DNA of 64,000 bases from Verrucomicrobiota bacterium (GCA_030749225.1 JASMKO010000057.1:4724-68723), one strand, 5' to 3'; shown: positions 1 to 15,785, numbered from the stretch's first letter. Made by a program: numbers and translations. Notes: generated from the sequence alone by a model not told the origin.

Positions 1-232
1 GGTTCTCGGCCTCCTTGTTGAGTTCAATCCACTCCTGCTGATCCTCCGGCACGTTGTCCTCGGCGAAGATGGCATCCACCGGACACTCCGGCACGCAGGC
101 ATCACAGTCGATGCAGGTGTCCGGATTGATCAGCAACCGATCCGGTGCCTCATGGAATGCCTCCACCGGGCAAACATCCACGCAACTGGTATAAACACAA
201 TCTACACACGCTCCTGTTACTACAAATGCCAT
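1..232 (-). CDS. fdxA: 7Fe-type ferredoxin (FdxA-like); 3' end runs off the window
   Basis: Not in the ORF track because there is no stop inside the window. The reverse complement from the ATG at 232-230 reads MAFVVTGACVDCVYTSCVDVCPVEAFHEAPDRLLINPDTCIDCDACVPECPVDAIFAEDNVPEDQQEWIELNKEAEN. It carries CxxCxxxxCxxxCP plus CxxCxxCxxxCP cluster motifs. Confidence 0.85.
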   Translation of the reverse strand, partial: MAFVVTGACVDCVYTSCVDVCPVEAFHEAPDRLLINPDTCIDCDACVPECPVDAIFAEDNVPEDQQEWIELNKEAEN

Positions 233-363
233 AATCTAATCGTTTTTCTTCTTTAATCTAATTAACGCCAAAGCAGGGAGTTTAGATTGCTTTGAAAACG
301 AGACAAGAAATCAGTTAAGAATGCAAACAGGTCTCATTATCACTTTACTGCTTGGTGCAACGG

Positions 364-384
364 TTAGTCGATGTAAACGAACTC
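364..384. repeat. Left copy of a 21-bp direct repeat (TTAGTCGATGTAACGAACTC-type; actual sequence ttagtcgatgtaaacgaactc). It is an orphan copy of the codons EFVYID+stop of a DUF1553 gene
   Basis: Matches 12882-12902 at 20 of 21 positions, with 19 contiguous, in the same orientation. It sits in AT-rich non-coding DNA with no ORF attached. Confidence 0.7.
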
Positions 385-738
385 AATATGTGTTATTTGA
401 TCAACATTTTCAGTGTTTTTTGAAAACACAAAACCTTAATCACACTTTTTAAGGCCATCAAAGTTGCCTGTTTGTCAGCAAATGAATTGCATCAATATTG
501 GTTCAAACGGACAGCTTTTCCATGATCTATGAAAACCAAATCCAGCTGACTTCACTGCGCAGTATTAGCAACAGCCCAAAGGCATTGCACTCTGAGCTAA
601 ATCTTGTAAACCACTTCGATTACCCCTCTAAGCGACTGGTGTTGTGAATTTTAGGAAGCCCTCATCCCTTCCCCACCTTCCCTTTTGCTGGCACACCTAT
701 GTTTCTGCTGCCATTATTTCTTTACCACGATTTCTGTA

Positions 739-789
739 ATGAAACACATACTAACAACAATCGCAGCCGTGGTTCTGGTGAGGTGTTGA
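739..789 (+). pseudogene. Head-only remnant of the ANK-lipoprotein signal peptide (MKHILTTIAAVVLVRC*)
   Basis: atgaaacacatactaacaacaatcgcagccgtggttctggtgaggtgttga is a close copy of the 'head' repeat at 2132 and 3342. The lipobox Gly is mutated to Arg and a stop follows immediately. The next 9 nt (786-794, TTGAAAGCT) match the 'tail' repeat. Confidence 0.5.
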
Positions 790-810
790 AAGCTTTAAGA
801 TAAGTCCAAA

Positions 811-1704
811 ATGAAAATAAATTGTTCAAACTGCAATCAACGCTTGGAAATACCTGAAGAACTTGCTGGGCAGACCATTGAGTGCCCTGCTTGTAATACC
901 AGCTTGGTTGTGGCATCCATCGAAGTACCTCCACCTGCAACACCTCAAATTAGGGTTACAGCACCGCAAGCAAGCGCACCACAAAAACCTCCGACAAAAA
1001 GAAAAATCGCAGCACCACCCATAGCTGCTTCCCCCAAGAAAACAAAATCACTGATTCCCAAGATAGCCATTGGTGCTATTGCAGGTGTTGCTGTCGTGGT
1101 TTTGATTATGATTTTTTCAGGTGCCTCGAAGGATGTTTCGGAATCTAACCCAACAACAGGCAGAATTGAATGGAAGCCGCAGGGATCGTCATCTCAACCA
1201 TTTGAATCAGTTGCGCAATTTGCCGAACAGAGAGCTACAGGAAAGAAGCTATCTAACGCGATAAGAAATAACGATATTGAAGAAGTAAAAACTTTATTGG
1301 CTGATGGCATAGACCTAAACCAATCCACCTACGGAGCCTTTGGGTCGCCATTGAGTCAGGCGATATCATCAGGCCAAAAAGAGATTGTTGAATTGCTTAT
1401 TACTAATGGCGCAGATGTAAATGCGAAGCGTTTTCAGAACATAACTTATTTACATGATGCTGCCTATGAACATAGAAAGGAAATCGTCGAACTTCTAATT
1501 GCCAATGGAGCGGATGTGAATGCTAAGGCCAGAGATGACATCAAAGGCACAACACCTCTGGATTCCGCCAATATGGGATTTGGATCAAAAAGAGGTAGAG
1601 TTAATTTACCTGCAAATCTCAAAAAAAATCGCACTGAAATTGCTGACATTATTCGCAAACACGGCGGCAAGACAGCTGAAGAATTAAAAGCTGAAGGGAA
1701 ATAA
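811..1704 (+). CDS. Zinc-ribbon / single-TM / ankyrin-repeat protein with the conserved ...RKHGGKTAEELKAEGK C-terminus
   Basis: The N-terminus MKINCSNCNQRLEIPEELAGQTIECPACNTSL is a CxxC...CxxC zinc ribbon. It is followed by a Pro-rich linker, a TM helix (IAIGAIAGVAVVVLIMIF) and ANK repeats (IVELLITNGADVNAK / IVELLIANGADVNAK). Confidence 0.85.
   Translation: MKINCSNCNQRLEIPEELAGQTIECPACNTSLVVASIEVPPPATPQIRVTAPQASAPQKPPTKRKIAAPPIAASPKKTKSLIPKIAIGAIAGVAVVVLIMIFSGASKDVSESNPTTGRIEWKPQGSSSQPFESVAQFAEQRATGKKLSNAIRNNDIEEVKTLLADGIDLNQSTYGAFGSPLSQAISSGQKEIVELLITNGADVNAKRFQNITYLHDAAYEHRKEIVELLIANGADVNAKARDDIKGTTPLDSANMGFGSKRGRVNLPANLKKNRTEIADIIRKHGGKTAEELKAEGK
1651..1704 (+). repeat. Junction repeat, tail-only copy (IRKHGGKTAEELKAEGK*)
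   Basis: attcgcaaacacggcggcaagacagctgaagaattaaaagctgaagggaaataa aligns with the tails at 3105-3160 and 11046-11101. Confidence 0.8.
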
Positions 1705-1712
1705 GAAAAACA

Positions 1713-2135
1713 ATGCTTATGCCTATAAAACCGAGAAACTTAATTGGGTTCTTCTTAGGCATACCGTTTATATGGATAGGATGTGACCATTTCATCAGAC
1801 CAGAAATATTTGATCTAATTGTTCCGAATTATTTGGGGTTCCCACGTTTCTGGACAATAGCTAGCGGAGTGTTTGAAATTCTTCTTGGGATAGGAATCAT
1901 GCTACCTCCTTGCCGTCGATCGACAGCTCGTTTTTTAACGTTTTTTTTGATGTGTGTTTATTTGGCTAATTTAAATATGTGGTTAAACGACATACCATTT
2001 AATGGTACAGTACTTAGTCAAAATGGTCACATTATCAGGCTCCTAGTTCAGTTAGCGCTAATTTGCATTGGTCTTTGGCTTGCTGAATTAATAGGAGGAA
2101 ATACCAGTAGAGAATTGAAAGCTGAAGGCAAATGA
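1713..2135 (+). CDS. DoxX-like small membrane protein that carries an ANK-type ...SRELKAEGK tail
   Basis: 140 aa with 4 predicted TM segments. The motif HFIRPEIFDLIVPNYLGFPRFWTIASGVFEILLGIGIMLPP resembles the DoxX-like family. The last 14 aa (IGGNTSRELKAEGK) parallel the ANK tail HGGKTGEELKAEGK. The stop overlaps the next ATG as ATGA. Confidence 0.6.
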   Translation: MLMPIKPRNLIGFFLGIPFIWIGCDHFIRPEIFDLIVPNYLGFPRFWTIASGVFEILLGIGIMLPPCRRSTARFLTFFLMCVYLANLNMWLNDIPFNGTVLSQNGHIIRLLVQLALICIGLWLAELIGGNTSRELKAEGK

Positions 2136-2215
2136 AAAACCTCCTACCCACAACAATCGCAGCCGTGGTGCTGGTGGGGTGTAGGGAGTCGCAGCAGTTG
2201 GCTCCTGCACCAGAA
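2112..2215 (+). repeat. Junction repeat, tail plus head copy
   Basis: gaattgaaagctgaaggcaaATGAaaaacctcctacccacaacaatcgcagccgtggtgctggtggggtgt...gtcgcagcagttggctcctgcaccagaa is about 90% identical by eye to 3342-3445. Confidence 0.85.
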
Positions 2216-3160
2216 GCAAAACCAGCTGAACCAGTTATCGAAGCCGCACAGTCAGCGGAGTTCTCCAAACCGTTGTCGGAAGCAAATAGTGCGCTAATGG
2301 ATGCGGCCAAGAGAGGAAACATTGAAGCAATCAAACAACACTTGACCGATGGTGCGGATGTGAACGTGAAGGGAATTGGGGGAATGGCGCCTTTGCATCG
2401 TGCGGCTCGTGAAGGACACAAGGAAGCCTCAGAACTTCTCATCACCAATGGCGCGGATGTAAACGCGAAGGATAAGAGGGGAAGGACTCCTTTGCATCGT
2501 ACGGCTCGTGAAGGACACAAGGAAGTCGCCGAACTGCTGATTGCCAAAGATGCAGATGTGAATGCGAAGAGTGAGTCCGGTTTATTTAAAGGCGAAACAC
2601 CGCTAGATGAAGCCATCAAGCGCAAACGGCCCGAAGTCGCCGACCTTCTTCGCAAACACGGAGGTAAATACAGTTCAATCGCCGTAGCTGCTAAAGCAGG
2701 AGATGTTGAAGCATTAAAGAAGTTTTTGGCTGATGGCGTGGATGCAAGTGCGATAGGCCTTTTGTCTGCGGCGGCTTCTGGGGGTCACAAGGAATTCGTA
2801 GAACTACTGATTGCCAATGGTGCGGATGTTGCTGCCAAGAATGAATATGGCAGTACTCCTTTGCATAGTGCGGCAACCAAGGAAATAGCCGAATTACTGA
2901 TCGCCAACGGTGCAGACATAAATGCGAAGATTAATGATGGATCGTCACCTTTGCTTGCCGCGGCTATAAAAGGTCACAAGGAAGTCGCTAGGCTATTGAT
3001 CGCTAATGGCGCGGATGTGAATGCAAGGAGTGAATCTGTTCTTGGAAAGGACAAGACAGCGTTAGATTGGGCCGTTGATCAAGGCTACACTGAAATCGCC
3101 GACCTCCTCCGCAAACACGGCGGCAAGACGGGTGAAGAATTGAAAGCTGAAGGGAAATGA
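2132..3160 (+). CDS. Ankyrin-repeat lipoprotein (two fused ANK modules)
   Basis: MKNLLPTTIAAVVLVGC has a lipobox (LVGC). There are multiple ANK repeats (TPLH..A...GH.E.AELLI.NGADVNAK). An internal cap LLRKHGGK lies mid-protein, and the C-terminus is LLRKHGGKTGEELKAEGK. Confidence 0.9.
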   Translation: MKNLLPTTIAAVVLVGCRESQQLAPAPEAKPAEPVIEAAQSAEFSKPLSEANSALMDAAKRGNIEAIKQHLTDGADVNVKGIGGMAPLHRAAREGHKEASELLITNGADVNAKDKRGRTPLHRTAREGHKEVAELLIAKDADVNAKSESGLFKGETPLDEAIKRKRPEVADLLRKHGGKYSSIAVAAKAGDVEALKKFLADGVDASAIGLLSAAASGGHKEFVELLIANGADVAAKNEYGSTPLHSAATKEIAELLIANGADINAKINDGSSPLLAAAIKGHKEVARLLIANGADVNARSESVLGKDKTALDWAVDQGYTEIADLLRKHGGKTGEELKAEGK

Positions 3161-3166
3161 AACACT
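3105..3166 (+). repeat. Junction repeat, tail plus the first 9 nt of the head
   Basis: ctcctccgcaaacacggcggcaagacgggtgaagaattgaaagctgaagggaaATGAaacac. Confidence 0.85.
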
Positions 3167-3333
3167 TAATACAGACACTGCTGAAATTTGGTAAACGTTC
3201 CTTCAAAGCAAATTATGGTGAAGCCGTTTCTGTGACACGCAAAATCTACAATTCTGTTGTTATGGTAACGGCAACCATACTTTTCGTCTTTATTATGTAT
3301 GGGTTGATGGACATGGTGTTTTTGTCCAAGTGA
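3157..3333 (+). CDS. Possible 58-aa single-TM protein that starts with the head ATG (below the ORF-track cutoff)
   Basis: The ATG at 3157 overlaps the upstream TGA as ATGA. Translation: MKHLIQTLLKFGKRSFKANYGEAVSVTRKIYNSVVMVTATILFVFIMYGLMDMVFLSK*. I recognise no homology. Confidence 0.3.
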   Translation: MKHLIQTLLKFGKRSFKANYGEAVSVTRKIYNSVVMVTATILFVFIMYGLMDMVFLSK

Positions 3334-3341
3334 ATTTAATA

Positions 3342-3935
3342 ATGAAACACCTCCTACTCACAACAATCGCAGCCGTGCTTCTGGTGGGGTGTGGTGAGTC
3401 GCAGCAATTGGCTCCTGCACCAGAATCAAAACCCACTGAACCAGTTCCAGAAGCTACACAACCAAACCAGTCGACAGACAAAACACCAGACATATCAATT
3501 CACGATGCTGCTTGGAACGGAAACATTGAGGCAGTTAAACAGCATATTGCTGCTGGTACGGATTTGAATGCTAAGGATGAACTTGTCGGAAGGACCCCAT
3601 TGCATTGGGCGGCAACTAATAATGTTCGTAGGGAAATCGTCGAACTGCTAATCGCCAATGGTGCCGATGTGAATGCGATGGACAGCATGGCCGGTATGAC
3701 GCCTTTACATCGTGCGACTTTGGATGGTTACAAGGAAATCGCGGAAGAGTTTATCGCCAACGGTGCGGATGTGAATGCGAAAGATAACAATAACGAAACA
3801 CCTCCTACTCACAACAATCGCAACCGTGGTGCTAGCGGGGAGGGCCAAGTATGTCGATTTACGCGAGGCAATGCCATCGCGCTCCATCTTCCCGTAGCGG
3901 TTTCAAAGTGTCGTCATCCGATACCTTCGGCTTGA
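3342..3935 (+). pseudogene. Truncated/chimeric ankyrin-repeat lipoprotein gene
   Basis: The start is intact (MKHLLLTTIAAVLLVGCGESQQLAPAPE) and about 3 ANK repeats follow. At 3792 the ANK frame runs into another head copy whose ATG is mutated to ACG (aacgaaacacctcctactcacaacaatcgcaaccgtggtgctagcgggg). From there the reading is out of frame (…DNNNETPPTHNNRNRGASGEG…) and no terminal cap is present. Confidence 0.65.
3792..3840 (+). repeat. Junction repeat, head-only copy (start codon ATG changed to ACG) embedded in the truncated ANK gene
   Basis: Aligns with 2131-2180, 3341-3390 and 11098-11148. Confidence 0.8.
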
Positions 3936-3967
3936 TCTTCTGCTGAACACCCACCAAACTTTCGGCT

Positions 3968-6523
3968 GTGATTTCAAACAATATATTCCGTCTTAGCTGC
4001 GCGCTTGTTGTCTTCAACTCCAATTGTTTGACCCAACTTTTCGGGCAAGGTTCCAAAGTGGATTATGAGCGTGCAATTGGATTAAGGGATAGGGTTCGAA
4101 ATAAAGTCTTCAAGAAGCATGTCAATCCCAAGTGGTCTCCCGATGGAGACCGTTTCTGGTATCGCAACGATTTGTCGACCGACCGACGTGAGTTTGTCTT
4201 GGTGGATACAAGCAAGGGCGAACGTCGATTGGCGTTCGACCATGTCAAGGTTGCCGCGACCTTGGCCAATGCTCTTGGTCAATCGGTAGATGCTGAGAAA
4301 CTTCCCATCGATAAGTTGGCTTTTACCGATAACCCGAATCGCTTACGCTTAATAGGAAAGGGTAATAGTTGGGAACTGGACCTTAAAACTAGCGAGTTAG
4401 GTGAATTCACTTCATCCGTTAAAGAGCTTATGTCGCTTGAGCCACCCGAAGCCATTCGCCCGTCCGGCAGTAACGGGCAAGAAACCTATGTCACATTCCG
4501 CAATGTAACGGATCAGATCATTCGCTTGGTTTGGGTGTCAGGCGATGGCGGACGGCATCTTTACGAGGTGATTGGCGATAAATCAGAATTCAAACAACAC
4601 ACTTATGCAAATCATGTGTGGCTCATTGAAACTGACGAAGGCAAACGGCTCGGCATCTATGAGGCGAAACCCGGAAACCCAACCGTGATTATCGATGGCC
4701 GTACGAAGGCCTTGAAAAAGAGTACAGTCAAGTCCGATGAAGACGACGAGCAACCTGAACACGAAAAATACAGTTCGCCCCGAGGCTTGCGTTCGCCTGA
4801 TGGCATATGGGAGGTGTCGATCAAAGAACATAACATTTGGATTCGGGGCAAGGACGGTCAGCATTTTCAACTCAGCAAAGATGGCACTGATGAGGATGGT
4901 TATCGCAGAGGTGATGTCCACTGGTCACCTGACTCGAAACGGTTGACAGCTTTGCGAACGCTCAAGGAAGAGGAGCATCTAGTTAATGTTGTTGAGTCGT
5001 CCCCAAAGGATCAATTGCAACCTAAGTTGCATTCGTTCCGATATCTTAAACCGGGCGATCGAGTGGCAAAACAACGGCCCAAGTTGTTTAATGTTGGGGA
5101 AAGACAAGAAATCCAGATTGAACAGGGTCTATTTGACAATCCGTGGCGTATCAATCGCATTCGCTGGGCCAAGAACTCACGGGAGTTTACCTTTGAGTAC
5201 AACGAGCGAGGACATCAGGTGCTTAGAATCATTTCCGTAAACTCGCGGAATGGAAAAACCAAGCCGGTCGTTGAAGAAACCAGCAACACGTTTGTCGATT
5301 ATTCCCAGAAACATTATGAATACTGGCTTGGCGATGGTGAAGAATTGATTTGGATGAGTGAACGTAACGGATGGAATCATCTCTACCTTTTCGACACGCG
5401 AGAAAAGAAACTGAAAAACGCCATCACACAAGGCGATTGGGTGGTAAGAAAGGTTGAGCATATCGACGAAGCCAGACGACAAATATGGTTTCAGGCAATG
5501 GGAATTTATCCGGAACAGGATCCCTATTACATACATCACTGCCGTGTTAATCTCGATGGCACCGGCTTGACTGTTTTAACCGAAGGAAATGGAACGCACG
5601 AATTACAGTGGTCTCCGAGTCGACGGTTCTTTGTCGATAAATGGTCACGAGTGGATCAACCACCTGTGCACGAGCTGCGTTCAGCTGATGGGGAATTCAT
5701 TTGCGAACTGGAACGAGCTGATTGTGTGCAACTATATAGAACCGGGTGGAAATTGCCCGAGCGTTTTGTAACCAAAGGCCGAGATGGGGAAACTGACATC
5801 TTTGGAGTAATATGGCGTCCGACTAATTTTGATCCGACGAAACGCTATCCGGTGATAGAAAACATCTATGCTGGGCCACATAGCTTCTATGTGCCAAAAG
5901 CATTCCGTGATTACTACGGTCAACAGCGAATGGCCGAGCTGGGATTCATTCTAGTCCAAATTGATGGGATGGGAACCAACTGGCGTTCGAAAAAGTTTCA
6001 CGATGTTTGCTGGCAAAACATTAAGGATGCCGGCTTTCCGGATCGAATATTATGGATTAGAGCTGCGGCCAAAGAATACCCGGAAATGGATTTGTCTATC
6101 GTCGGTATTTACGGTGGTTCAGCAGGAGGTCAAAACACAATGAGCGGTTTGCTGCATCATGGGGACTTTTATAAAGTCGGCGTTTCAGACTGCGGTTGTC
6201 ATGACAACCGTATGGATAAAATCTGGTGGAATGAAGCATGGATGGGTTGGCCAATCGGCCCGGAATACTCTGAAAACAGTAATGTCACTCATGCCCACAA
6301 ACTAAAGGGTAAGTTATTGTTGATTGTGGGTGAACTTGATCGGAATGTCGATCCTGCAAGCACTATACAAGTCGTTGATGCTTTGATAAAAGCGGACAAG
6401 GATTTTGACTTTCTTCTTATCCCAGGAACAGGTCACGGCGCAGCCGGAACTCCCTACGGTCGTCGCAGGCAAATGGATTATTTTGTAGAACACATCCTCA
6501 AAATGAAACCTAGATGGGAGTGA
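3968..6523 (+). CDS. S9-family serine peptidase (dipeptidyl-peptidase IV / prolyl oligopeptidase-like)
   Basis: 851 aa. The N-terminal region is beta-propeller-like. The C-terminal alpha/beta-hydrolase part carries the nucleophile motif IYGGSAGGQNT, then GELDRNVD and GTGHG, consistent with a Ser-Asp-His triad order. The N-terminus is hydrophobic and signal-like. The start (GTG at 3968) is uncertain. Confidence 0.88.
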   Translation: MISNNIFRLSCALVVFNSNCLTQLFGQGSKVDYERAIGLRDRVRNKVFKKHVNPKWSPDGDRFWYRNDLSTDRREFVLVDTSKGERRLAFDHVKVAATLANALGQSVDAEKLPIDKLAFTDNPNRLRLIGKGNSWELDLKTSELGEFTSSVKELMSLEPPEAIRPSGSNGQETYVTFRNVTDQIIRLVWVSGDGGRHLYEVIGDKSEFKQHTYANHVWLIETDEGKRLGIYEAKPGNPTVIIDGRTKALKKSTVKSDEDDEQPEHEKYSSPRGLRSPDGIWEVSIKEHNIWIRGKDGQHFQLSKDGTDEDGYRRGDVHWSPDSKRLTALRTLKEEEHLVNVVESSPKDQLQPKLHSFRYLKPGDRVAKQRPKLFNVGERQEIQIEQGLFDNPWRINRIRWAKNSREFTFEYNERGHQVLRIISVNSRNGKTKPVVEETSNTFVDYSQKHYEYWLGDGEELIWMSERNGWNHLYLFDTREKKLKNAITQGDWVVRKVEHIDEARRQIWFQAMGIYPEQDPYYIHHCRVNLDGTGLTVLTEGNGTHELQWSPSRRFFVDKWSRVDQPPVHELRSADGEFICELERADCVQLYRTGWKLPERFVTKGRDGETDIFGVIWRPTNFDPTKRYPVIENIYAGPHSFYVPKAFRDYYGQQRMAELGFILVQIDGMGTNWRSKKFHDVCWQNIKDAGFPDRILWIRAAAKEYPEMDLSIVGIYGGSAGGQNTMSGLLHHGDFYKVGVSDCGCHDNRMDKIWWNEAWMGWPIGPEYSENSNVTHAHKLKGKLLLIVGELDRNVDPASTIQVVDALIKADKDFDFLLIPGTGHGAAGTPYGRRRQMDYFVEHILKMKPRWE

Positions 6524-6560
6524 TATCTTCACTGGCCGCTCTAAACCACCCCGTGGCCAC

Positions 6561-6663
6561 CTACTTCCTCTGCGAACTCGGTGGCAAGTCCAATGGGGAA
6601 CTGGAAGCTGAGGGCAAATGAGACATCTTCCTACTCACAACAATCACCGCCGTGCTTCTGATG
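6561..6663 (+). repeat. Junction repeat, degenerate tail plus head copy downstream of the peptidase gene
   Basis: ctacttcctctgcgaactcggtggcaagtccaatggggaactggaagctgagggcaaATGAgacatcttcctactcacaacaatcaccgccgtgcttctgatgg. The tail reads ...LCELGGKSNGELEAEGK*. The head has a 1-nt insertion, so it is frameshifted. Confidence 0.75.
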
Positions 6664-6815
6664 GATCCAAATTGGCCGCCTATGGCATCAATTGCCCGCT
6701 GTCCCCAGGGTGCAGACCGCCGGTTTCAGAAAGGATTGGGTTTCGTTTTCGGTGATCCCGACGGCGGTATTCACAGCAAAAAATTGCGGGATCTCTCAAT
6801 GAGATGAATTGAAGC

Positions 6816-9530
6816 TTACAGTGATGATTGATTAAGGGGATCGCTTTCAAACCATCTTGTCCACCATTCTGGTTTATAGATGATACGAAAGATGCTGGTG
6901 TATTCATCGGTCCATAATGGCGAATCTTCTTGCGCACTTAGTTTTGTGCGCGGATAATTATAATCCTCGATTTGCCGGATAAATTTTTCATTGTCCGATA
7001 GCAATATCCAGGTGCAGTCATAAATCCAATCCTCCCCAACACTCTCACCGTTATCACTGTTCACCACAACCATCATCATGTTCATCTCCATGGCCAGACG
7101 TCGCACCACGGTTTTGAGATCCAGATATTTGTTGGAAACATGGATCGCTATGACGCCTTGTGGATGGGTGTGTTCTCTGTAAAGCCCCATTGATTCCTTA
7201 GTCAATAGATGCACCGGTATAGAGTCGCTGCTAAAAGCATCCAACACCAGCAAGTCAAAGTTTTGTTTATTGCCTTTATTAAGCTCTTGTTCCATCGACA
7301 ACCGGGCGTCACCTAAGACAATTTCCACTTCTGCTCCGCGGATTTGGGCATTGGTTAGAAATGTGAATTGACTTTGATCTTCCGATGACAGGTTTATCAC
7401 TTGTGGATTGATGTCATAGAAGCGATAGCTGTCACCAACCTGCGCATAGCCTGCAACCGTTCCAACACCTAGCCCTATCACACCCACGCGTTTTCTCTCG
7501 GCTTGGGTATGTTGCATCGACAATCCCACGCCGCTTTCTGGCGTGTAGTATGTGGTAGTTCGATTGCAAATTTCCAGCGCCTCATACTGAATGCCATGTG
7601 TAATCCGACCGCTCCATAGTGCTAGATAGGGTTCATCGGAGTCGTCGAAATATCGGGTTATCATAAGTGTGCCATAAAAATTTCTGTCCAAATGTACGGC
7701 ATCCTGCTGTGTCTTGATACCCTGAATGGTTAAGCCCATGCCCAGAGTCCCCAATGCCGGCACAAGTAGCAGAAGATAGCCGGCATATCGAAGCCCCCAT
7801 CCTTCTTGGTGTTTCGTGCTAAACCAAAAAATGCAATTAAGAGGAAGGGTTACGGCCACGGCGATCAACAATAATCGTATCCATTGTTCGCCTGGGAGAT
7901 TGCTAATCTTGAGCCATTCAGAAATGTTAATACCAATAGTAAAATCCACCATCTTCTCCATAGTCCAAAGCGAAACCAGTACTATCAGCACCTGTGCACT
8001 CAAAATAGAGAAAATAATCATCCTAAAAGATCTGCAGCATGTCGCGAGGGAACCGGAATATGACCTCAATAAACTTAACCCCCGCCATTTCACGGCAGTT
8101 GAATCCTCAGAATTGAGTCCCTGCAACGTCAAGACCAGTAATCCAACTGCCCAAAGTGAAATGTGATACTCCCAGTAACCATGGAACAGCATTGGAGCCA
8201 GTAAAGCCACGAAAAAGCCACCCAAGGCGCCGCCAGCAGAAATAGTCAAATAATACATGGTGAGTTGGGCCGGTTTCGGGCGAAGTCTGTACAACTCACC
8301 GTGGCATATCATGCAACTCAAGAATAGCGCACCGCAGAAAACCAATATTTGCCCAACAATGTGGAAATCTACCCCTCGAAACATCACCCATAACACGCCT
8401 GCCCAAAACAGTATCAACAGCGGTATGTAGATTTCTCGAATATACCAGCGTGGGCTATGGAAACTAATTATGAAGGTAACTAGGTATAGGGCCAACGGCA
8501 GCATCCAGAGGAAGGGCACCACTGCCATATCCTGACACAACTTGTTGGTGGTGCCCATGAGTATGGCAGTGCCGCAGGCCGGCAAAGCGAGCCAGAAACA
8601 CAATATCACCAACCTTCGCAACCGGCTTTCATTCTCTTCTAGTATGGTTTTCTCTCTTTTGGCTTCGTCATTATCCAGATTTGGCACAGATCGCAATGAC
8701 CATGCCAGATAGCCGCATACCAGCACGTAAAACACCATCCCAATCGACCACCAGTTGATCTGCGCAGTACGCGTCGTCCACGGCTCCACCAGCAATGGAA
8801 ATCCGAGTAGTGCCAGAAGTGAGCCAACATTGGAAAGCGCATAGAGTCGGTAAGGTGAGCATCCTGGATTAGCCTTCGCAAACCAAGCCTGTACCAGTGG
8901 GCTAGTGGCCGAGAGAACGAGGTATGGCAGGCCAATACTTTCAGTCAGTAGCAGCAAAATTTGTACTGTTGGAGATTCGTTGCCTCTCGGTTTGAGGCTT
9001 TCGTTTGGTGTTATGGGTAGCGTGATGGTGGCTAATAAAAGTAATACTCCATGTATAATCACCTGTTTGCGTATCGGTAAAAAACGATTCACGAGGTGAG
9101 CATACGCATAACCGACTAGTAACAGAGATTGGAAGAACAGCAGGCAGGTTGTCCACACACTGGGCGCACCGCCGAACCAAGGCAGTATGTACTTGCCGGT
9201 CAATGGTTGGACAAAAAACAGCAGGAGCGCACCCATAAAAATTGTCACGGCAAAGACAGGTAGACTCGGGGGCACGGGTTGAAGTCTCGTTTGAGTCACT
9301 CTCAAAGAGAACAGGCCACCAATTAATGAAAAAAACAATGTAAAAGCCTTGATTATGAGTATAATCGATGAGGGCAAGCTTGTAGGCAAATCATCTTCTC
9401 CGCAGAGGACGGACTGCGCAACAAACCTCACATCATTGATTATAATGTGCCTCCGTTCTTTTGCCAGACCATCCAATACTATCCAGAGTTTGAGAGTGCC
9501 TTGAGCCGTAAGAAAGAAGCTGTACTCCAC
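6816..9530 (-). CDS. Polytopic membrane protein fused to a spermidine-synthase-like (class I methyltransferase-fold) domain
   Basis: About 600 aa of TM-rich sequence includes VQPLTGKYILPWFGGAPSVWTTCLLFFQ. The C-terminal part has GVIGLGVGTVAGYA (a SAM/dcSAM-binding Gly-rich loop) and DLLVLDAFSSDSIPVHLLTKE, as in spermidine-synthase-like proteins. The true start is probably internal to the track ORF. Confidence 0.75.
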   Translation of the reverse strand: MEYSFFLTAQGTLKLWIVLDGLAKERRHIIINDVRFVAQSVLCGEDDLPTSLPSSIILIIKAFTLFFSLIGGLFSLRVTQTRLQPVPPSLPVFAVTIFMGALLLFFVQPLTGKYILPWFGGAPSVWTTCLLFFQSLLLVGYAYAHLVNRFLPIRKQVIIHGVLLLLATITLPITPNESLKPRGNESPTVQILLLLTESIGLPYLVLSATSPLVQAWFAKANPGCSPYRLYALSNVGSLLALLGFPLLVEPWTTRTAQINWWSIGMVFYVLVCGYLAWSLRSVPNLDNDEAKREKTILEENESRLRRLVILCFWLALPACGTAILMGTTNKLCQDMAVVPFLWMLPLALYLVTFIISFHSPRWYIREIYIPLLILFWAGVLWVMFRGVDFHIVGQILVFCGALFLSCMICHGELYRLRPKPAQLTMYYLTISAGGALGGFFVALLAPMLFHGYWEYHISLWAVGLLVLTLQGLNSEDSTAVKWRGLSLLRSYSGSLATCCRSFRMIIFSILSAQVLIVLVSLWTMEKMVDFTIGINISEWLKISNLPGEQWIRLLLIAVAVTLPLNCIFWFSTKHQEGWGLRYAGYLLLLVPALGTLGMGLTIQGIKTQQDAVHLDRNFYGTLMITRYFDDSDEPYLALWSGRITHGIQYEALEICNRTTTYYTPESGVGLSMQHTQAERKRVGVIGLGVGTVAGYAQVGDSYRFYDINPQVINLSSEDQSQFTFLTNAQIRGAEVEIVLGDARLSMEQELNKGNKQNFDLLVLDAFSSDSIPVHLLTKESMGLYREHTHPQGVIAIHVSNKYLDLKTVVRRLAMEMNMMMVVVNSDNGESVGEDWIYDCTWILLSDNEKFIRQIEDYNYPRTKLSAQEDSPLWTDEYTSIFRIIYKPEWWTRWFESDPLNQSSL

Positions 9531-9679
9531 AGTATAAAGAAACTAAGCGACACAAACGCCAAGCAAGCAAAACCGCTCGTCCAAAGGCGATAACATCTTG
9601 TAAATGGCCAAGTGCAATGTTTTACAGCAATAAAAAACGCCTTGAAAGTAGCCACCGTTCCGATGACTGTTGCCTTGCT

Positions 9680-11101
9680 ATGAAGTCCTTACTGCTCGCA
9701 ACTAACCTAGCGGTGTTGTTGGTGGGATGTGCCCCAAGTGTAGATATTTGGGAAGCTGCGTGGATGGGAGACGTCGAAGCCGTCAAATCGCAATTGGCTG
9801 CTGGCGCGGATTTGAACAAAAAGGATAGTTTTGGAAGAACTCCTTTGTATTATTCGGCCTTGGAAGGTCACACGCAAGTTGCTGAACTGCTTATCTCCAA
9901 AGGTGCAGATGTGAATGCGAAGACTAATACTGGTAGAACTCCTTTGCATTATGGGGCTCGTGCAGGTCATAAGGAAATCATCGAACTACTTATCTCCAAG
10001 GGTGCGCTTGTGAATGCAAAGGTTGTTGATGGCAAAACACCCCTGGATTGGGCAGAAAAGTTATATGAATGGGAATTACCCGAAGTAAAAGCAGCCAAAA
10101 AAGAAGCTGCCGACCTTCTGCGCAAACATGGTGGCAAAACGGGTGAAAAATACTTAATTCATTTAGCAGCAAGAGAAGGTAATATCAAGGCTGCCAAACA
10201 ATATCTGCTTGATGGTGTGAATGCGAAAGATGGGATTGGTAGGACTCCTTTGCATCTGTCGGCTATGGGTGGTCACCATGAAGTCGGCGAACTGCTTATA
10301 GCAAATGGCGCGGATGTGAATGCAAAGGATAATAAGGCAGCAACTCCTTTGCATTATGTGCTAAGGGGAACGAAAGTTGCCGAACTGCTTATAACAAACG
10401 GCGCGGATGTGAATGCAAGGGATAATAAGGGAGCGACTCCTTTGCATTTTACGGCTACTTATGGCCGTAAGGAAGTCGCCGAACTACTCATTGCCAATGG
10501 TGCGGATATCAATCAGAAGGATGCAGATGGCTGGACTCCTTTGCATTTTGCAGCGAATTGGGGTCACAAGGCAATCGTTGAACTACTCATTGCCAATGGT
10601 GCGGGGATAAAAGTAAGTTCTAGTGAACCCAAAGGCAATACACCGCTAGGTATTGCCATCCAGAATAGCTATCCCGAAATCGTCGAGCTTCTCATCGACA
10701 AAGGTACGGATGTGAATGCGAAAGATGTTGGGGGAGGGACTCTTTTGGGCTGGGCGGCTCGTTTTGGTCACGCGAAAGTTGCTGAACTGCTTATCGCCAA
10801 AGGTGCAGATGTGAATGCGAAGGATAAGTATGGAAGGACTCCTTTGCATCGTGTGACTACGTACGGAGGCCGCCGTCGAACGCGGCTTGGTAAGACTTAT
10901 TTAGCTCTGGAAGATTACGTGGAAATTACTGAACTACTTGTTGCCAAAGGTGCGGATGTGAATGCAATCATTGCGTCTGGTCGATACCAAGGAAAGACGT
11001 TGTTAGATCGAGCCGGTGAACAAAAGCAACCCGAAATTGCCGCACTCCTCCGCAAGCACGGCGGCAAGACAGGTGAAGAATTGAAAGCTGAAGGGAAATA
11101 A
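9680..11101 (+). CDS. Ankyrin-repeat lipoprotein (two or more fused ANK modules)
   Basis: I reset the start to ATG 9680 (MKSLLLATNLAVLLVGC, lipobox). There are more than 10 ANK repeats. An internal cap LLRKHGGKTGEK lies mid-protein, and the C-terminus is LLRKHGGKTGEELKAEGK. Confidence 0.9.
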   Translation: MKSLLLATNLAVLLVGCAPSVDIWEAAWMGDVEAVKSQLAAGADLNKKDSFGRTPLYYSALEGHTQVAELLISKGADVNAKTNTGRTPLHYGARAGHKEIIELLISKGALVNAKVVDGKTPLDWAEKLYEWELPEVKAAKKEAADLLRKHGGKTGEKYLIHLAAREGNIKAAKQYLLDGVNAKDGIGRTPLHLSAMGGHHEVGELLIANGADVNAKDNKAATPLHYVLRGTKVAELLITNGADVNARDNKGATPLHFTATYGRKEVAELLIANGADINQKDADGWTPLHFAANWGHKAIVELLIANGAGIKVSSSEPKGNTPLGIAIQNSYPEIVELLIDKGTDVNAKDVGGGTLLGWAARFGHAKVAELLIAKGADVNAKDKYGRTPLHRVTTYGGRRRTRLGKTYLALEDYVEITELLVAKGADVNAIIASGRYQGKTLLDRAGEQKQPEIAALLRKHGGKTGEELKAEGK

Positions 11102-11148
11102 AACACCTCCTACTCACAACAATCGCAGCCGTGCCGGTGGTGGGGTGT
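11046..11148 (+). repeat. Junction repeat, tail plus head copy (head start codon lost: ATG changed to ATA)
   Basis: ctcctccgcaagcacggcggcaagacaggtgaagaattgaaagctgaagggaaATAAaacacctcctactcacaacaatcgcagccgtgccggtggtggggtgt. Confidence 0.85.
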
Positions 11149-11340
11149 AATTCAACTCGCACTGAACTAAGCCATCTCCCGGGTATCTCAATTCATCAAG
11201 CTGCCACTAGAGGGGACATTAAAGCCGCTAAACAGCACTTGATGGCCGGGGTAAGCCCTGATTAAAAGCCAAAAGCGGATGGGTACCATTACACTACGCT
11301 TCTGGTGGGCGCCATTATGACATCGTTAAACCATATGGTG
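11098..11340 (+). pseudogene. Decayed ankyrin-repeat lipoprotein gene
   Basis: The start codon is mutated. The frame reads IKHLLLTTIAAVPVVGCNSTRTELSHLPGISIHQAATRGDIKAAKQHLMAGVSPD* and stops at 11265. A shifted frame then reads ...GWVPLHYASGGRHYDIVK..., which is an ANK remnant. Confidence 0.65.
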
Positions 11341-11554
11341 GTAGAGAAGGCCCAAGGCATCCAGAGAAGGCCGCCGCAACAGTAAAGACCAGCCGACAAG
11401 TAAATGGGTCTCTTCACGGCTTGGTTGACTCTAACACCCCGCAGTCCTACCCCTCAAAATGAAATAAGAAGGCCGCACAGGGCAGAGCGACCTCGGCCAT
11501 TCTTTTGAAGAAAAATAATTTGATAAATAATAAATAAGACATATAATTGCCGCC

Positions 11555-12010
11555 ATGAATGCGACAGCCGGATTAGTTCTAGCCATCCTCATCTTTGGGG
11601 CGGCGATGTTCATGCTGGGGCAGATTATCCCCGGCATCTTGGTGTTGACCAAGGTCTTGGCGGTGTTTCTGGTCGTCGTCCTTGGCATTGTGGTTCCCGT
11701 GCAGGCGGCTAGCCTGAAACTGGCGATCCGCGCAATCTTCAGGGAGGACGTGCCGTTCAAGGCCTCCTACGTCTTGATGGCAATCCTGCTCATCGTTTAT
11801 GTCGTGATCATGATGGTGGCCTTTAATACGCCCATCATGGCCTACGCGGGGCAGTTTATCGTCGGATCTTTTCTCTTGGGCAAATTCGTCGAGATGGATG
11901 GGGAATCGATCGGCATCCTGAAAGGTGCGTTGGTCTCGCTGCTGACCACGGCCATCACCTACGGAATCTGGTTCGTAGCCGGCACCACGATCATGGGGAT
12001 GCTGAGATAG
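11555..12010 (+). CDS. Hypothetical small integral membrane protein (about 4 TM)
   Basis: 151 aa and strongly hydrophobic (LVLAILIFGAAMFMLGQIIPGILVLTKVLAVFLVVVLGIVV...). The antisense ORF 11579-12064 is Arg/Asp/His-rich and looks non-coding. Confidence 0.5.
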   Translation: MNATAGLVLAILIFGAAMFMLGQIIPGILVLTKVLAVFLVVVLGIVVPVQAASLKLAIRAIFREDVPFKASYVLMAILLIVYVVIMMVAFNTPIMAYAGQFIVGSFLLGKFVEMDGESIGILKGALVSLLTTAITYGIWFVAGTTIMGMLR

Positions 12011-12167
12011 AGGCTGCTGACTCCTAGAGATCGTCGCAGCAAGTGTTGTGAGGGTCGGCGGCATCGCAACGATCCGGCTCGAGCGGCTTGGTTTTCTTCT
12101 GCCGCATCAGCCGCTCGTACTCCTCCCGCTTGACGGTGAACTGGCAGTGGCGTTTCATTGGGTTGAT

Positions 12168-12659
12168 ATGTCAGAAGAACCATTGCAATCCACGCAGGCT
12201 ATCCCTGACCTCGTTACCAAGGCTATCCCTGACGACGAGCGCCTATGGGTCCCGCAGGCCGACAAGATTTGGTTCCGGCCACTGATTTTGAACACCACCA
12301 ATGGAGAGTGGGTTAACCTATTGCGAATTGCCAAAGGCGGTGTGATGAATCGCCACCGCCACCCCGCGCCGGTCTACGGCTACGTGCTAAAGGGCGAGTG
12401 GCGCTACCTCGAGCATGACTGGGTGGCCAAGCCGGGTACGTTCGTCTTCGAGCCGCCCGGCGAGATTCACACGCTTGTGGTCGACGAGGAAGTGGAGGAA
12501 ATGATCACGCTCTTTCATGTTTTCGGCGCGTTGGTGTACTATGACGAGGACGACAACCTCATCCAGCATGACGATGTGCACACAAAGATCGAGATGTGCC
12601 GTGCGCACTTCGAGCAGGTTGGCCTCGGTGCTGATTACGTCAAGCAGTTCATCCGCTAA
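12168..12659 (+). CDS. Cupin-fold protein, 2,4'-dihydroxyacetophenone-dioxygenase-like family
   Basis: I reset the start to ATG 12168 (MSEEPLQ...). Supporting motifs are LWVPQADKIWFRPLILNTTNGEWVNLLRIAKGGVMNRHRHPAPVYGYVLKGEWRYLEHDW and GEIHTLVV, which match the cupin metal-ligand pattern. Confidence 0.7.
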   Translation: MSEEPLQSTQAIPDLVTKAIPDDERLWVPQADKIWFRPLILNTTNGEWVNLLRIAKGGVMNRHRHPAPVYGYVLKGEWRYLEHDWVAKPGTFVFEPPGEIHTLVVDEEVEEMITLFHVFGALVYYDEDDNLIQHDDVHTKIEMCRAHFEQVGLGADYVKQFIR

Positions 12660-12881
12660 ACACGCTATTCACTTGGGGGAAAGACAGGTTCTGGGTCGAA
12701 ATGAGAATTTTTTCTCACTCTCACTCGCTCGTCTTCTCCAGCCCGACATCCTCTGTCAGTTCCTTGGCTCGCTGGCGAGAGACGTTAATTATCCTGTTTT
12801 TGAGGTCATTTTTTCAAAGCAGGTCATAGTCCTTCCACAGCCCGAGTTCCGGGGCCCCCTCCCCCAAATCTGGCTAGGTCT

Positions 12882-12902
12882 TCAGTCGATGTAAACGAAC
12901 TC
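12882..12902. repeat. Right copy of the 21-bp direct repeat; it forms the functional 3' end (EFVYID*) of the DUF1553 gene
   Basis: tcagtcgatgtaaacgaactc versus ttagtcgatgtaaacgaactc at 364-384. Confidence 0.7.
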
Positions 12903-15785
12903 GTTGGCGTTAAGCAGGATGCGGCAAAAGCCGTTGAGAGCAACGTCAGCATCAGTCCCTTGGCCCAGCAGACGACTGAAAAACTGAGTCTCCTCTGCGG
13001 TTGGCGGGCGGCCAAGCGCCAACCGACAGGCCAGGCGCACTTTTTCCTCCGCGCTATCCCCTGCCTCGCGCTGGATGCGCTTGGCCAAGGCGGCGGCTTC
13101 CTCGTTCACAAAGTCGCCGTTAAACAGCGACAACGCCTGCAACGGAGTGACAGAGGTGCGGCGGCGAGGCCGTGAGTCGTCGCATACAGTCGAGTCAAAC
13201 GCCTGCATGAACGGCATGTTCAGTGTTCGCTGCTGGTAGATGTAAATACTGCGCTTGCGGCCGGCGTGGTCGAGCTGCGTGTCCCACTTGTTCTCGGAGT
13301 ACTTCACCGTCTGAGCGATGTCGCCCGGCAGCGGCGGGAAAATCGGCAGACCGTACTGCTCCAGGTTCAGCCGACCACTCACCGCGAGCACGTTGTCGCG
13401 GATCGACTCGGCGTCGAGCCGCCGCTGCTCGCGGCGCCACCACAGGTTGTTCAACGGATCGACCGCCAAGCCCGCCTCATTTTTCACCAGCGACAACTGT
13501 CGATAGGTGCTGGAAGTGACGATCAGTCGGTGCATTGACTTCAGGCTCCAACCGCTGTCGACGAAGCGCCCGGCCAGCCAGTCGAGTAATCCTGTGTGTG
13601 TCGCGCCACCGCTGAGTTTGCCGAAGTCGCTTGGTGTTCGTACCATGCCACGGCCGAAGTGCCAGTACCACAGGCGGTTCATCATCACGCGGGAGGTGAG
13701 CGGGTTGTCCCGTTTGGCGATCCACTTGGCCAAGGCCATGCGGCGGCTCCGCGTGGGCCAGCGCTTGAACGGGTCAAGCCGGACAGCCGCCGGTTTAGTG
13801 TGGCCGGCTATAATGCTCGGAAAACCGGCCTTCACTACCGGGCCGTGGTTGTCGTACTCACCGCGCAGCTTGACGGTGGTAACCGGCACACCCGGCTCGT
13901 ACGGCGGCCCGAACGAATGCCGCAACGACATGGCGACAGGCTTAAGCCGCTTGAGGTGCTGTTTGACGAAGCGCTCCCGGTTCTCCAGACGGTAAAACAG
14001 ATCCCGCTCGTTCTTTGTGAACAGGTCGTTGGAGTAGTCGTAGATTTGATCGCGCAGTTTTTTACCACTGGCTGCGGCCGGATTGATGAACGTCCCGAGC
14101 ATCGCGCCGGCGCCGCCGACCTCGAATCCGTATCCCTCGCCGGTGTGTTCTGCGGAAAATATGACCACGACCGAGCCAGCTTGGTCGTCGAGGAACTTGG
14201 CCAAGTCAGTACGAGAGAGGCTGCTTCGCAGAAAACTCTTGTCGAAGTGCAACGCCGGGGCTTGCCCAAGCCGCGTGAGCCTGGGCTGCCGACTCACCTC
14301 CACTTGGCCAAGCGCAGTCTTGGTGATCTTGTCCACCCACACGCTGACTCGGTCGCCCTCGGCCGGGTTGGGTGTCTCGGCGTTCGCGTCCAGGTCGGCT
14401 GCATCAAGCCAGAACCTCAGATCTTCAGCGGGCGGCCCGGACATCACCCCCTCACCGTGGTACTTGGCCTTCACATAGCGGTCGAGCTCGCCAAGCTTCT
14501 CGCTGTTAAGCGGTTGTCCGTAAATCATCACCTCTGCAAACGCCCCCTTGTGGCCGGCGTTTTTAGGCTGGCCGGTGCCCTCGGTATAGTCGCCGAGGCT
14601 GATGTACTCCGGTTTCGGAAGATCGCCGTACCACTTGCCGTTGTTCGAGCCGCTCTTACTGCCAAGCGCCCCGGCCGGCCGGCTGTCGGTGTGGAAAGTC
14701 CAGACTGTGCCATCGCTCGACGCGACGGTATAGTGCGGCTGGCCGTCGGTCACGTTCGTGGTGTCGTAAAGGTAGTCGTTACCCAGGCCGCCGCCATAAA
14801 TCTGCAGGCCGAACCCGGCATTGCGCCTGGCGGTGCGTGGCTCCAGTTGCTGTCTCAACTCGGCCAGTTTCGACTTGGCCTCGCCGACCTGATGCTGCAG
14901 CCGAGCACGCTTGTCGTTGATCAACACCTCCTCATGGGCACGATAAAACCGCGCCGACAAGGAGCCGCCGATCTGGAAACCGTCGCCCCGTTCAGGAGGC
15001 GGCAGCTGCACCGTCGAAAAGAACGCCTGCATGCGATAGAAGTCGGCAATCGGGATGGCGTCATGCTTGTGGTCGTGGCACTGCGCACAGCCCATGGTGA
15101 GCCCGAGAAACACGGAACTGACCGTCGAGGTCATCTCGCTGAGCAGCTCGTGCCGGGAGCGGTCGCCGCGCGGCTCGGTAAACGGCGCAAGCCGCAAAAA
15201 CGTCAGCGCGACTGTGCGCTCGGCATCCATCCCCGGCAGTTCGCCGGCGCCCATGATCTCGTTGAACTCGTCGCCGGCAATTTGTTCACGGATAAACAGG
15301 TCGTAAGGCTTGTCGCGGTTGAGCGAGTCGATGACGTAGTCGCGGTAGCGCCAAGCGTGCGGCATGTCGGGGTCGCCCTCGTAGCCGGCGGTATCGGCAT
15401 ACCGTGCCAAGTCGAGCCAGTAGCGCGCCCACCGTTCGCCATAACGCGGATCGTTGAGCAGCCGATCGACGAGCCGTTCGTAGGCAAGCGGGCTGCGGTC
15501 GTTGACGAAGGCGTCGGCGGCGTTCGGCTCCGGCGGCACACCAAGCAGGTCGAAATACAACCGCCGTACCAGCGTACGGCGCTTGGCCAACGGTGCAGGC
15601 TCGATACTTTTCGCCTCCAGCCGGGAGAGAATGAACGCGTCGATCGGGTTACTGACCCAGTTGGTGTTCGTCACCCCTGGGGGGACGATCGGAACGAGCG
15701 GCGTGAATGGCCAGCGCTTGGCCTGATCCGCGTGGCCAATCGCTCCCAACAACAGCGTGGCGGCGATGGTTGTAGAAAATCGCAT
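12882..15785 (-). CDS. DUF1549 (PSCyt2) / DUF1553 (PSD1) domain protein with a central LamG-like insert
   Basis: I reset the start to ATG 15785 (MRFSTTIAATLLLGAIGHA, a signal peptide). NPIDAFILSRLEAKSIEPAPLAKRRTLVRRLYFDLLGVPP is DUF1549-type. CAQCHDHKHDAIPIADFYRMQAFF and the C-terminal ...LLNANEFVYID are DUF1553-type. Confidence 0.9.
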   Translation of the reverse strand: MRFSTTIAATLLLGAIGHADQAKRWPFTPLVPIVPPGVTNTNWVSNPIDAFILSRLEAKSIEPAPLAKRRTLVRRLYFDLLGVPPEPNAADAFVNDRSPLAYERLVDRLLNDPRYGERWARYWLDLARYADTAGYEGDPDMPHAWRYRDYVIDSLNRDKPYDLFIREQIAGDEFNEIMGAGELPGMDAERTVALTFLRLAPFTEPRGDRSRHELLSEMTSTVSSVFLGLTMGCAQCHDHKHDAIPIADFYRMQAFFSTVQLPPPERGDGFQIGGSLSARFYRAHEEVLINDKRARLQHQVGEAKSKLAELRQQLEPRTARRNAGFGLQIYGGGLGNDYLYDTTNVTDGQPHYTVASSDGTVWTFHTDSRPAGALGSKSGSNNGKWYGDLPKPEYISLGDYTEGTGQPKNAGHKGAFAEVMIYGQPLNSEKLGELDRYVKAKYHGEGVMSGPPAEDLRFWLDAADLDANAETPNPAEGDRVSVWVDKITKTALGQVEVSRQPRLTRLGQAPALHFDKSFLRSSLSRTDLAKFLDDQAGSVVVIFSAEHTGEGYGFEVGGAGAMLGTFINPAAASGKKLRDQIYDYSNDLFTKNERDLFYRLENRERFVKQHLKRLKPVAMSLRHSFGPPYEPGVPVTTVKLRGEYDNHGPVVKAGFPSIIAGHTKPAAVRLDPFKRWPTRSRRMALAKWIAKRDNPLTSRVMMNRLWYWHFGRGMVRTPSDFGKLSGGATHTGLLDWLAGRFVDSGWSLKSMHRLIVTSSTYRQLSLVKNEAGLAVDPLNNLWWRREQRRLDAESIRDNVLAVSGRLNLEQYGLPIFPPLPGDIAQTVKYSENKWDTQLDHAGRKRSIYIYQQRTLNMPFMQAFDSTVCDDSRPRRRTSVTPLQALSLFNGDFVNEEAAALAKRIQREAGDSAEEKVRLACRLALGRPPTAEETQFFSRLLGQGTDADVALNGFCRILLNANEFVYID

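Follow-up and report, generated by a model that had tools for sequence, protein, structure and literature searches.

How does a bacterial gene come to have two copies of its own 3′ end, some 12.5 kb apart, only one of which is still attached to the gene? The question is raised by a 64,000-nucleotide stretch of DNA from a Verrucomicrobiota bacterium (GCA_030749225.1 JASMKO010000057.1:4724-68723), referred to here as the window, in which the last codons of a minus-strand gene for a DUF1549/DUF1553 protein (the DUF1553 gene) are repeated beside the spacer of a ferredoxin gene. By comparison with the orthologous loci of relatives, the DNA between the two copies was found to be an insertion with exact borders, and its features suggest that it is probably an island integrated at the gene end by an enzyme that it does not itself encode.

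Duplicated gene end and empty sites in relatives

The left copy of the repeat, TTAGTCGATGTAAACGAACTC at 364-384, and the right copy, TCAGTCGATGTAAACGAACTC at 12882-12902, lie in direct orientation and are identical at 20 of 21 positions, 19 of them contiguous (366-384 against 12884-12902); they differ solely in the second base of the stop codon, which is TAA on the left and TGA on the right. The right copy is the true terminus of a 967-amino-acid protein (…NEFVYID, then TGA). The left copy reads EFVYID-TAA, has no gene homology upstream, and is separated from the ferredoxin start (position 232) by 131 nt. A preliminary description, made from the sequence alone, had reported a 21-bp direct repeat of exactly this kind, with its right copy as the real end of the DUF1553 coding sequence and its left copy lying without a gene 130 nt from the ferredoxin; all of this was borne out, the distance differing by a single nucleotide. 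By an estimate from base composition, about 0.009 direct pairs of 19 bp or longer would be expected by chance in 64 kb, and the remaining exact repeats of at least 17 bp in the first 16 kb all fall within the ankyrin gene family described below. On the island side of either copy, no homology was found past 19-21 bp. No tRNA, tmRNA or known RNA was found at the insertion site. A Xer/dif-type site was also considered and rejected, as the 19-mer, inspected by eye, has no dif-like arms.

The uninterrupted junction anticipated in the preliminary description, i.e., the DUF1553 3′ end, 80-157 bp and then the ferredoxin, was indeed found in at least seven related contigs (L001, L002, L003, L009, L172, L173 and L176), whose DUF1553 orthologs are 80-90% identical in protein sequence to the window gene. 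In the contigs of the three closest orthologs (90, 89 and 87% identity), which come from a Verrucomicrobiota metagenome-assembled genome (MAG) and from marine metagenomes, the order is DUF1553, about 130-157 bp, ferredoxin and then DUF1501. The same adjacency holds in L009, a GTDB representative MAG, and in L172, L173 and L176, where the DUF1553 orthologs are 80% identical. Since it is found in all these relatives, the DUF1553-ferredoxin adjacency is the ancestral state. In a BLAST comparison with the window, L001 resolved into two collinear blocks, its positions 1-5454 matching window 18340-12884 and its positions 5436-5820 matching window 384-1 (90%). The two flank alignments overlap in the empty sites by exactly the 19-bp core (5436-5454 in L001 and 8470-8488 in L003); an insertion of 12,518 bp is therefore present in the window, and the geometry proposed at the outset, with the gene end regenerated beside the insert and the original at the far border, agrees with this overlap. 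A multiple alignment identified window 363-233 as the ortholog of the L001 and L003 spacers, and the stop codon of the left copy is TAA as in L001. From these alignments, the left copy is the original chromosomal end of the gene, and the right copy, with its TGA, the one joined to island DNA.

Further copies of the repeat had been seen at the outset as a possible source of the orphan end. There was, however, no third copy of the 21-mer in the 64-kb window with up to three mismatches allowed, and none in 100 shuffles; the other DUF1553 homologs do not carry the 21-mer in their DNA. Among these homologs (about 80 loci), the 19-mer was found only in the orthologs of L002, L003 and L009, and the others differ at synonymous sites; conservation of the C-terminal motif NEFVY(I/V)D extends across the DUF1553 family.

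Exact-protein look-ups recovered the island from three other datasets at 99.2-99.97% identity. One carrier, the NCBI MAG contig JAYKCC010000322.1 (L089 and L179), spans the whole island from ferredoxin to DUF1553; the others are contigs from the JGI samples 3300035204 and 3300035250. The left repeat copy is present in L089, L090 and L091, and the right copy in L179, L180 and L181; in L179 and L180, the target gene was called as 967 amino acids as well. Since both junctions recur in three other assemblies, they are not an assembly artefact.

Composition, cargo and mosaic structure of the insert

The insert is foreign in composition over most of its length. The GC content is 0.38-0.51 from position 233 to about 11,500 and 0.55-0.65 in the rest of the window; over 385-11,500 it is about 0.46, against 0.60 for the host. 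Of a 10-bp palindrome, CTTGGCCAAG, the window has 28 copies, against 0.1 expected, with all of them in the span 13080-63835 and none in 1-12881; the insert thus has zero copies, against about 6.8 expected at host density. It is to be noted that the repeat brackets the island, as the preliminary description had stated, but also encloses DNA of host-like GC (0.56-0.57, from 11,579 to 12,659). The palindrome itself has a density of about one per 1.8 kb in coding and intergenic DNA alike, is equally dense in the host-like DNA of L002, L003, L009, L010, L102 and L184, and is absent from island-like contigs; this distribution resembles that of a highly iterated palindrome shared by the whole lineage.

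Table 1. Features of the insertion locus in the window (positions counted from its first nucleotide; aa, amino acids).
Feature	Position	Strand	Basis or remark
Ferredoxin (4Fe-4S), 5′ part; gene runs past the window start	1..232	-	Native host DNA, GC 0.556; ortholog follows DUF1553 in L001-L003, L009, L172, L173, L176
Native DUF1553-ferredoxin spacer, AT-rich ‘type A’ version	233..363	.	Aligns full length with L001 and L003 spacers
Left (distal) repeat copy	364..384	-	Displaced original last six codons and TAA; attR-like; abuts orthologous spacer
Inserted DNA, 12,497 bp (12,518 bp with one repeat copy)	385..12881	.	Missing from all empty-site relatives
Zinc-ribbon and ankyrin-repeat protein, 297 aa	811..1704	+	Pfam; exact protein in L089-L091
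Small membrane protein, weakly DoxX/MauE-like, 140 aa	1713..2135	+	Pfam matches below curated cut-off
Ankyrin-repeat lipoprotein, 342 aa	2132..3160	+	Pfam Ank, E = 2e-57
Ankyrin-repeat lipoprotein, 201 aa	3330..3935	+	Pfam
DPP-IV / prolyl-oligopeptidase (S9) family peptidase, 851 aa	3968..6523	+	Pfam PF00930, PF00326
Fused MFS (major facilitator superfamily)/spermidine-synthase-like protein, 904 aa	6816..9530	-	Weak NCBIfam match; homologs so named by their sources
Ankyrin-repeat lipoprotein, 494 aa	9617..11101	+	Pfam Ank, E = 1e-83
Membrane protein with host-like GC, 151 aa	11555..12010	+	Ortholog lies after DUF1501 in L002 and L009
ChrR-type cupin, 163 aa	12168..12659	+	Pfam PF12973; start as called in L180, L181
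Conserved non-coding block at the gene-proximal end of the insert, promoter-like site inside	12700..12860	.	Kept beside the cupin in other contexts
Right (proximal) repeat copy	12882..12902	-	Functional last six codons and TGA of the DUF1553 gene; attL-like
Intact target gene, DUF1549 (PSCyt2) and DUF1553 (PSD1), 967 aa, signal peptide	12882..15785	-	Pfam; length as in orthologs P0001-P0003

The cargo (Table 1) is dominated by four ankyrin-repeat proteins that have lipoprotein-type N-termini and C-termini in common, together with fragments of others. Truncated termini of ankyrin genes lie between the intact genes (735-786, 6514-6669 and 11097-11265) and consist of the signal peptide MKH(L/I)L.TTIAAV.LVGC and of the C-terminal motif …GGKTGEELKAEGK; they indicate that a tandem gene family has repeatedly recombined or decayed. 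Pfam, NCBIfam and PHROGs searches of the island open reading frames (ORFs) found no relaxase, transfer, excisionase, transposase or phage gene and no Cas1-like gene; as for prophage or phage-satellite features, the only PHROGs matches were to ankyrin repeats. No plausible candidate for a small recombination-directionality gene was present in the intergenic gaps. Terminal inverted repeats, which together with a transposase would have marked a transposon, were likewise absent from the insert, the sole inverted pair in the first 16 kb being internal and unrelated to the ends. Comparison of the insert with plasmid and phage collections gave no matches. A viral origin was considered on account of two IMG/VR contigs that contain the 19-mer and was rejected, as the 19-mer sits there in an unrelated phage ORF (…LQEFVYIDFVGG…) and these are chance matches.

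Different parts of the insert have their relatives in different places. Window 6768-10507 is 92% identical in DNA to the metagenome contigs L004 and L005, and other contigs encode relatives of the MFS/spermidine-synthase-like protein at about 90% identity. In L004 (3677-3689) and L005 (4779-4810), the gene for the latter is followed at a distance of about 50 bp by fragments resembling the 3′ end of a tRNA or tmRNA (T-arm, acceptor and CCA), which look like orphan att copies of tRNA-targeting elements. Window 11511-12004, of host-like GC, is about 85% identical in DNA to the gene that lies just after DUF1501 in L002 (14940-15390) and L009 (14903-15396). At that ancestral place, the genome of the window itself has a degenerate 5′ remnant of about 50 bp, in which ATG has become ACG (L089 109-217). 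No direct repeats were found around the 151-aa gene in L002 and L009 when these were compared with L001 and L003. The ferredoxin-DUF1501-BNR_2 neighbourhood is itself variable (L172 4874-6630 and 8599-11206; L176 5910-8376; L002 14941-15396), with a sulfatase plus a 70-aa gene, a 677-724-aa protein with glyoxalase, and the 151-aa gene being present or absent.

The gene-proximal end of the insert is occupied by a module of about 700 bp (12126-12831) that comprises a promoter, the gene for the cupin and, over about 170 bp, a conserved non-coding block. This module recurs with 94-98% identity in at least five other contexts, with unrelated flanks on both sides (L092, L093, L094 3150-3887, L102 3026-3766 and L103 601-1341); a tRNA-Ser(CGA) gene has its 3′ end 150 bp from the module in L102 and L103. 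Within the non-coding block there is a sigma-70-like promoter on the minus strand (12817-12788; TTGAAA, 18 nt, GATAAT), which points away from the DUF1553 gene and is antisense to the cupin. A block 74-84% similar occurs in L005 (4950-5084), just upstream of a plus-strand ORF. The possibility that the block contains an integron attC site was rejected, since inspection by eye revealed no complementary R''/R' pair and the window does not conserve the candidate AAC. The composition is reversed with respect to the window where a cupin 91% identical in protein sequence borders a high-GC segment (3 kb visible) that is enclosed in low-GC DNA (L096 1185-2267); that segment includes an ORF with a terminase GpA endonuclease domain, and the only direct repeat around it in L096-L098 was a 14-mer matching at 13 of 14 positions, probably by chance.

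Integrases of related islands and the route of entry

The preliminary description had noted no integrase, excisionase or transfer genes, and this absence was upheld. Beyond the family searches already described, a hidden Markov model (HMM) was built from 120 integrases of the relevant family and applied to the whole window translated in six frames; all positive controls were detected, and its best match in the window had an E-value of 0.48. Neither an integrase nor a remnant of one was found in the insert or in the 64-kb window by Pfam, NCBIfam, PHROGs or this model.

Relatives of the cargo and of the end-module do have integrases. In L094, a 379-aa tyrosine recombinase (PF00589 and PF13102; 847-1986) is encoded 1.2 kb from the cupin module, and its homologs are common in Verrucomicrobiota assemblies. 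One of these, P0245, which is 64% identical to the L094 integrase, lies directly beside ankyrin genes in ten marine contigs (L184-L193), the layout being host genes, integrase and then immediately an ankyrin gene (e.g., in L189, with the integrase at 3656-4786). Over their C-terminal 68 bp, these ankyrin genes are 88-94% identical to those of the window. At the integrase-ankyrin junction the GC content drops and the CTTGGCCAAG palindrome stops, and the contigs usually break just beyond. Since an integrase lies beside the same ankyrin family in ten contigs, the cargo family of the window habitually resides on integrase-bearing islands. The L094/L184-L193 islands thus share with the window the ankyrin lipoprotein family, a low-GC segment adjoining host DNA rich in the palindrome and, in the case of L094, the cupin end-module; unlike the window island, they encode the PF00589/PF13102 integrase and adjoin other host genes, and their contigs end inside the islands. 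No relatives of the L094 integrase were found in viral contigs. In a search for att repeats around the L094 integrase and cupin segment, the candidate borders shared no k-mer of 8 or longer; the 14-mers CGCTTGGCCAAGCG that flank this segment are copies of the abundant host palindrome. The earlier proposal of a decayed or satellite island gains indirect support from these integrase-bearing relatives, with the caveat that the insert is a mosaic with about 1.4 kb of host-like DNA rather than one clean element.

We consider it probable that the DNA at 385-12,881 is a horizontally acquired island that entered by Campbell-type integration between att sites, with an integrase that was subsequently lost or was supplied in trans, and that it now resembles a cis-mobilizable element (CIME). 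The 19-bp duplication of a gene end, the reading frame restored with a different stop codon, the foreign insert and the empty sites together read as the classical Campbell-type footprint. One crossover would have taken place at the very 3′ end of the DUF1549/DUF1553 gene, in the chromosome of a marine Verrucomicrobiota lineage. The incoming DNA, presumably as a circular intermediate, would have brought with it a version of the last six codons that matched the chromosomal one over 19 bp and was followed by a TGA stop codon of its own. Recombination within the 19 bp would then have joined the gene body to the island-borne end, leaving the protein unchanged at 967 amino acids, and would have displaced the original end (TAA), the native spacer and the ferredoxin by 12.5 kb. 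Integrase catalysis appears to be the most likely route because the cargo and the end-module are associated with tyrosine integrases, with a tRNA 3′ end and with orphan tRNA-end fragments; the likeliest catalyst would belong to the tyrosine integrase family whose members lie next to the same ankyrin-gene family and the cupin end-module in relatives. This integrase may later have been lost from the island, or may have acted in trans, either of which would yield a CIME-like, integrase-less derivative that recombination has since reshaped into a mosaic. The predicted attP is ...CTGGCTAGGTCT-T[C/T]AGTCGATGTAAACGAACTC-AATATGTGTTATTTG..., and the predicted empty attB is window 12903 onward joined to 384-1 via one core. 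Any continued spread of the island would probably occur by homologous recombination of its diverged flanks.

Several observations weigh against an integrase-mediated entry of this kind. First of all, there is the lack of an integrase or its remnant in the insert and the window. In addition, no integrase-bearing element was found at a DUF1553 3′ end, none of the approximately 80 DUF1553-homolog loci has an orphan duplicate of its own 3′ end, and the surroundings of the 19-mer showed no recognisable inverted core-type binding sites. The left borders of the cupin module vary slightly from context to context, in the manner of homologous-recombination breakpoints and unlike a fixed element end. Lastly, the gene-proximal 1.4 kb or so of the insert has host-like GC and includes the 151-aa gene, the ortholog of which neighbours the site in relatives; its presence inside the insert speaks for local recombination and mosaicism and not for a single, clean integration.

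Of the alternatives, the one that survives best is entry without any site-specific recombinase, which we regard as possible although somewhat doubtful. A foreign fragment, circular or linear, that chanced to have a DUF1553-type 3′ end could have been taken up by short-homology recombination, either RecA-dependent or illegitimate. In a variant, homology-facilitated illegitimate recombination, a donor DUF1553 gene would have served as the anchor and the far end would have been joined 21 bp upstream of the recipient stop codon, the orphan copy being accidental. Such an entry accords with the lack of an integrase, with an insert that is a recombinational mosaic including DNA from related Verrucomicrobiota, and with the family-wide NEFVY(I/V)D motif, through which short homologies exist. 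The flanks are also of relevance. Compared with L001, the identity is 98-100% in the CotH/LTD gene above about position 16,250 and 84-92% through DUF1553, ferredoxin and DUF1501, with the switch at about window 16,200 (L001 1-5820; L089 1-2256); this difference suggests that a diverged tract including the target gene was imported by homologous recombination. The island thus sits in at least 18 kb of diverged DNA, either a recombination tract or a divergent haplotype, and such a tract is as expected if island-bearing and island-free haplotypes exchange through their flanking homology. A donor-tract test along DUF1553 was confounded, as the entire region from DUF1553 to DUF1501 is diverged from L001. 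On the other hand, the end of a captured paralog should retain some homology on the island side, where both copies have none past 19-21 bp, and an illegitimate join falling just inside the gene end and restoring a stop codon would be an unlikely coincidence. Moreover, 19 bp is below the usual length for efficient RecA-mediated exchange, and the cargo family and end-module are tied elsewhere to integrases and tRNA 3′ ends.

A transposition-type event, in which a trans-acting enzyme cut the DNA with a stagger of 19 bp and repair left a 19-bp target-site duplication, appears very unlikely. The duplication is indeed perfect over 19 bp, with the first differing base at its edge, and the TGA could be composed of a T from the target and GA from the insert end. 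However, there are no terminal inverted repeats and no transposase or Cas1-like gene, the location exactly at the last codons is typical of att sites, and known target-site duplications are shorter, up to about 15 bp. It is still less probable that the region is ancestral and was deleted from relatives between the 19-bp repeats: such a deletion would also leave a single copy, but the empty state is seen in every relative examined (at least seven contigs of different lineages, at 80-90% protein identity), the insert has foreign GC and no host palindrome, and the origin of the orphan gene end would be unexplained.

The preliminary description's own alternative of a relic of a deleted DUF1553 paralog, and likewise a chimeric assembly joined at a shared k-mer, are hardly credible and can be taken as refuted: EFVYID is a family motif and the window probably comes from a metagenome assembly, but the orphan copy directly adjoins the orthologous spacer that belongs to this gene, no paralog exists in the window, the 19-mer is confined to orthologs, the junctions were assembled independently in three other datasets, with one contig across the whole island, and 19 exact bases are fewer than the overlap in usual de Bruijn k values.

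Relation to known elements and significance

Islands of tyrosine integrases reportedly insert at the 3′ ends of genes, whether tRNA, tmRNA or protein-coding, as in the ssrA islands of Dehalococcoides. The window island resembles them in its insertion at a gene 3′ end, which is regenerated, in its direct repeat of about 20 bp and in the existence of empty sites, and differs in that the defining integrase gene is absent. Of the general features of integrative islands, it has the repeat, the empty site and, except for the last 1.4 kb of host-like GC, the distinct composition; an integrase of its own is lacking. As a target, the DUF1549/DUF1553 gene has no other example among the roughly 80 homologous loci.

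The closest known counterparts are the CIMEs, described within the families of streptococcal integrative conjugative elements (ICEs) and integrative mobilizable elements (IMEs), which keep attL and attR and have lost their integration genes (PMC5704250). As in CIMEs, attL/attR-like direct repeats flank the window island, one of them being the 3′ end of the target gene, and the island has foreign composition and cargo only, with no integration or transfer genes (PMC5704250). Both repeat copies are intact over 19 bp, their att function being putative; the integration and transfer genes may have been lost, or may never have been present. Unlike CIMEs (PMC5704250), no cognate integrase-bearing ICE or IME was found at the att site of the window, so that decay would be the presumed route to its present state, and there is no accretion partner; further differences are the host, an uncultivated marine Verrucomicrobiota, and the inclusion of host-like DNA in the insert.

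Overall, the island belongs to a known kind of element, here met in a phylum that has been little studied, and the current understanding of island biology is unchanged by it. A more far-reaching interpretation, which we consider unlikely, would assign it to an as yet undescribed family of ankyrin-cargo integrative islands of marine Verrucomicrobiota, as a member that lacks an integrase and can still be mobilised in trans; the cupin and the non-coding end-module would form a portable integration arm, recognised by an integrase encoded elsewhere, through which one and the same cargo could reach different gene ends. If the repeat copies are indeed att sites, the 19-bp core and the empty-site sequences could serve excision assays by polymerase chain reaction (PCR) or read mapping. 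The locus provides a case, resolved to the base pair, of accessory gene gain in uncultivated marine Verrucomicrobiota, in which a gene end was hit without damage to the gene, and the genes gained are those for secreted ankyrin-repeat lipoproteins, a peptidase and a polyamine-related membrane protein. It also documents that such islands can persist without a recombinase of their own.

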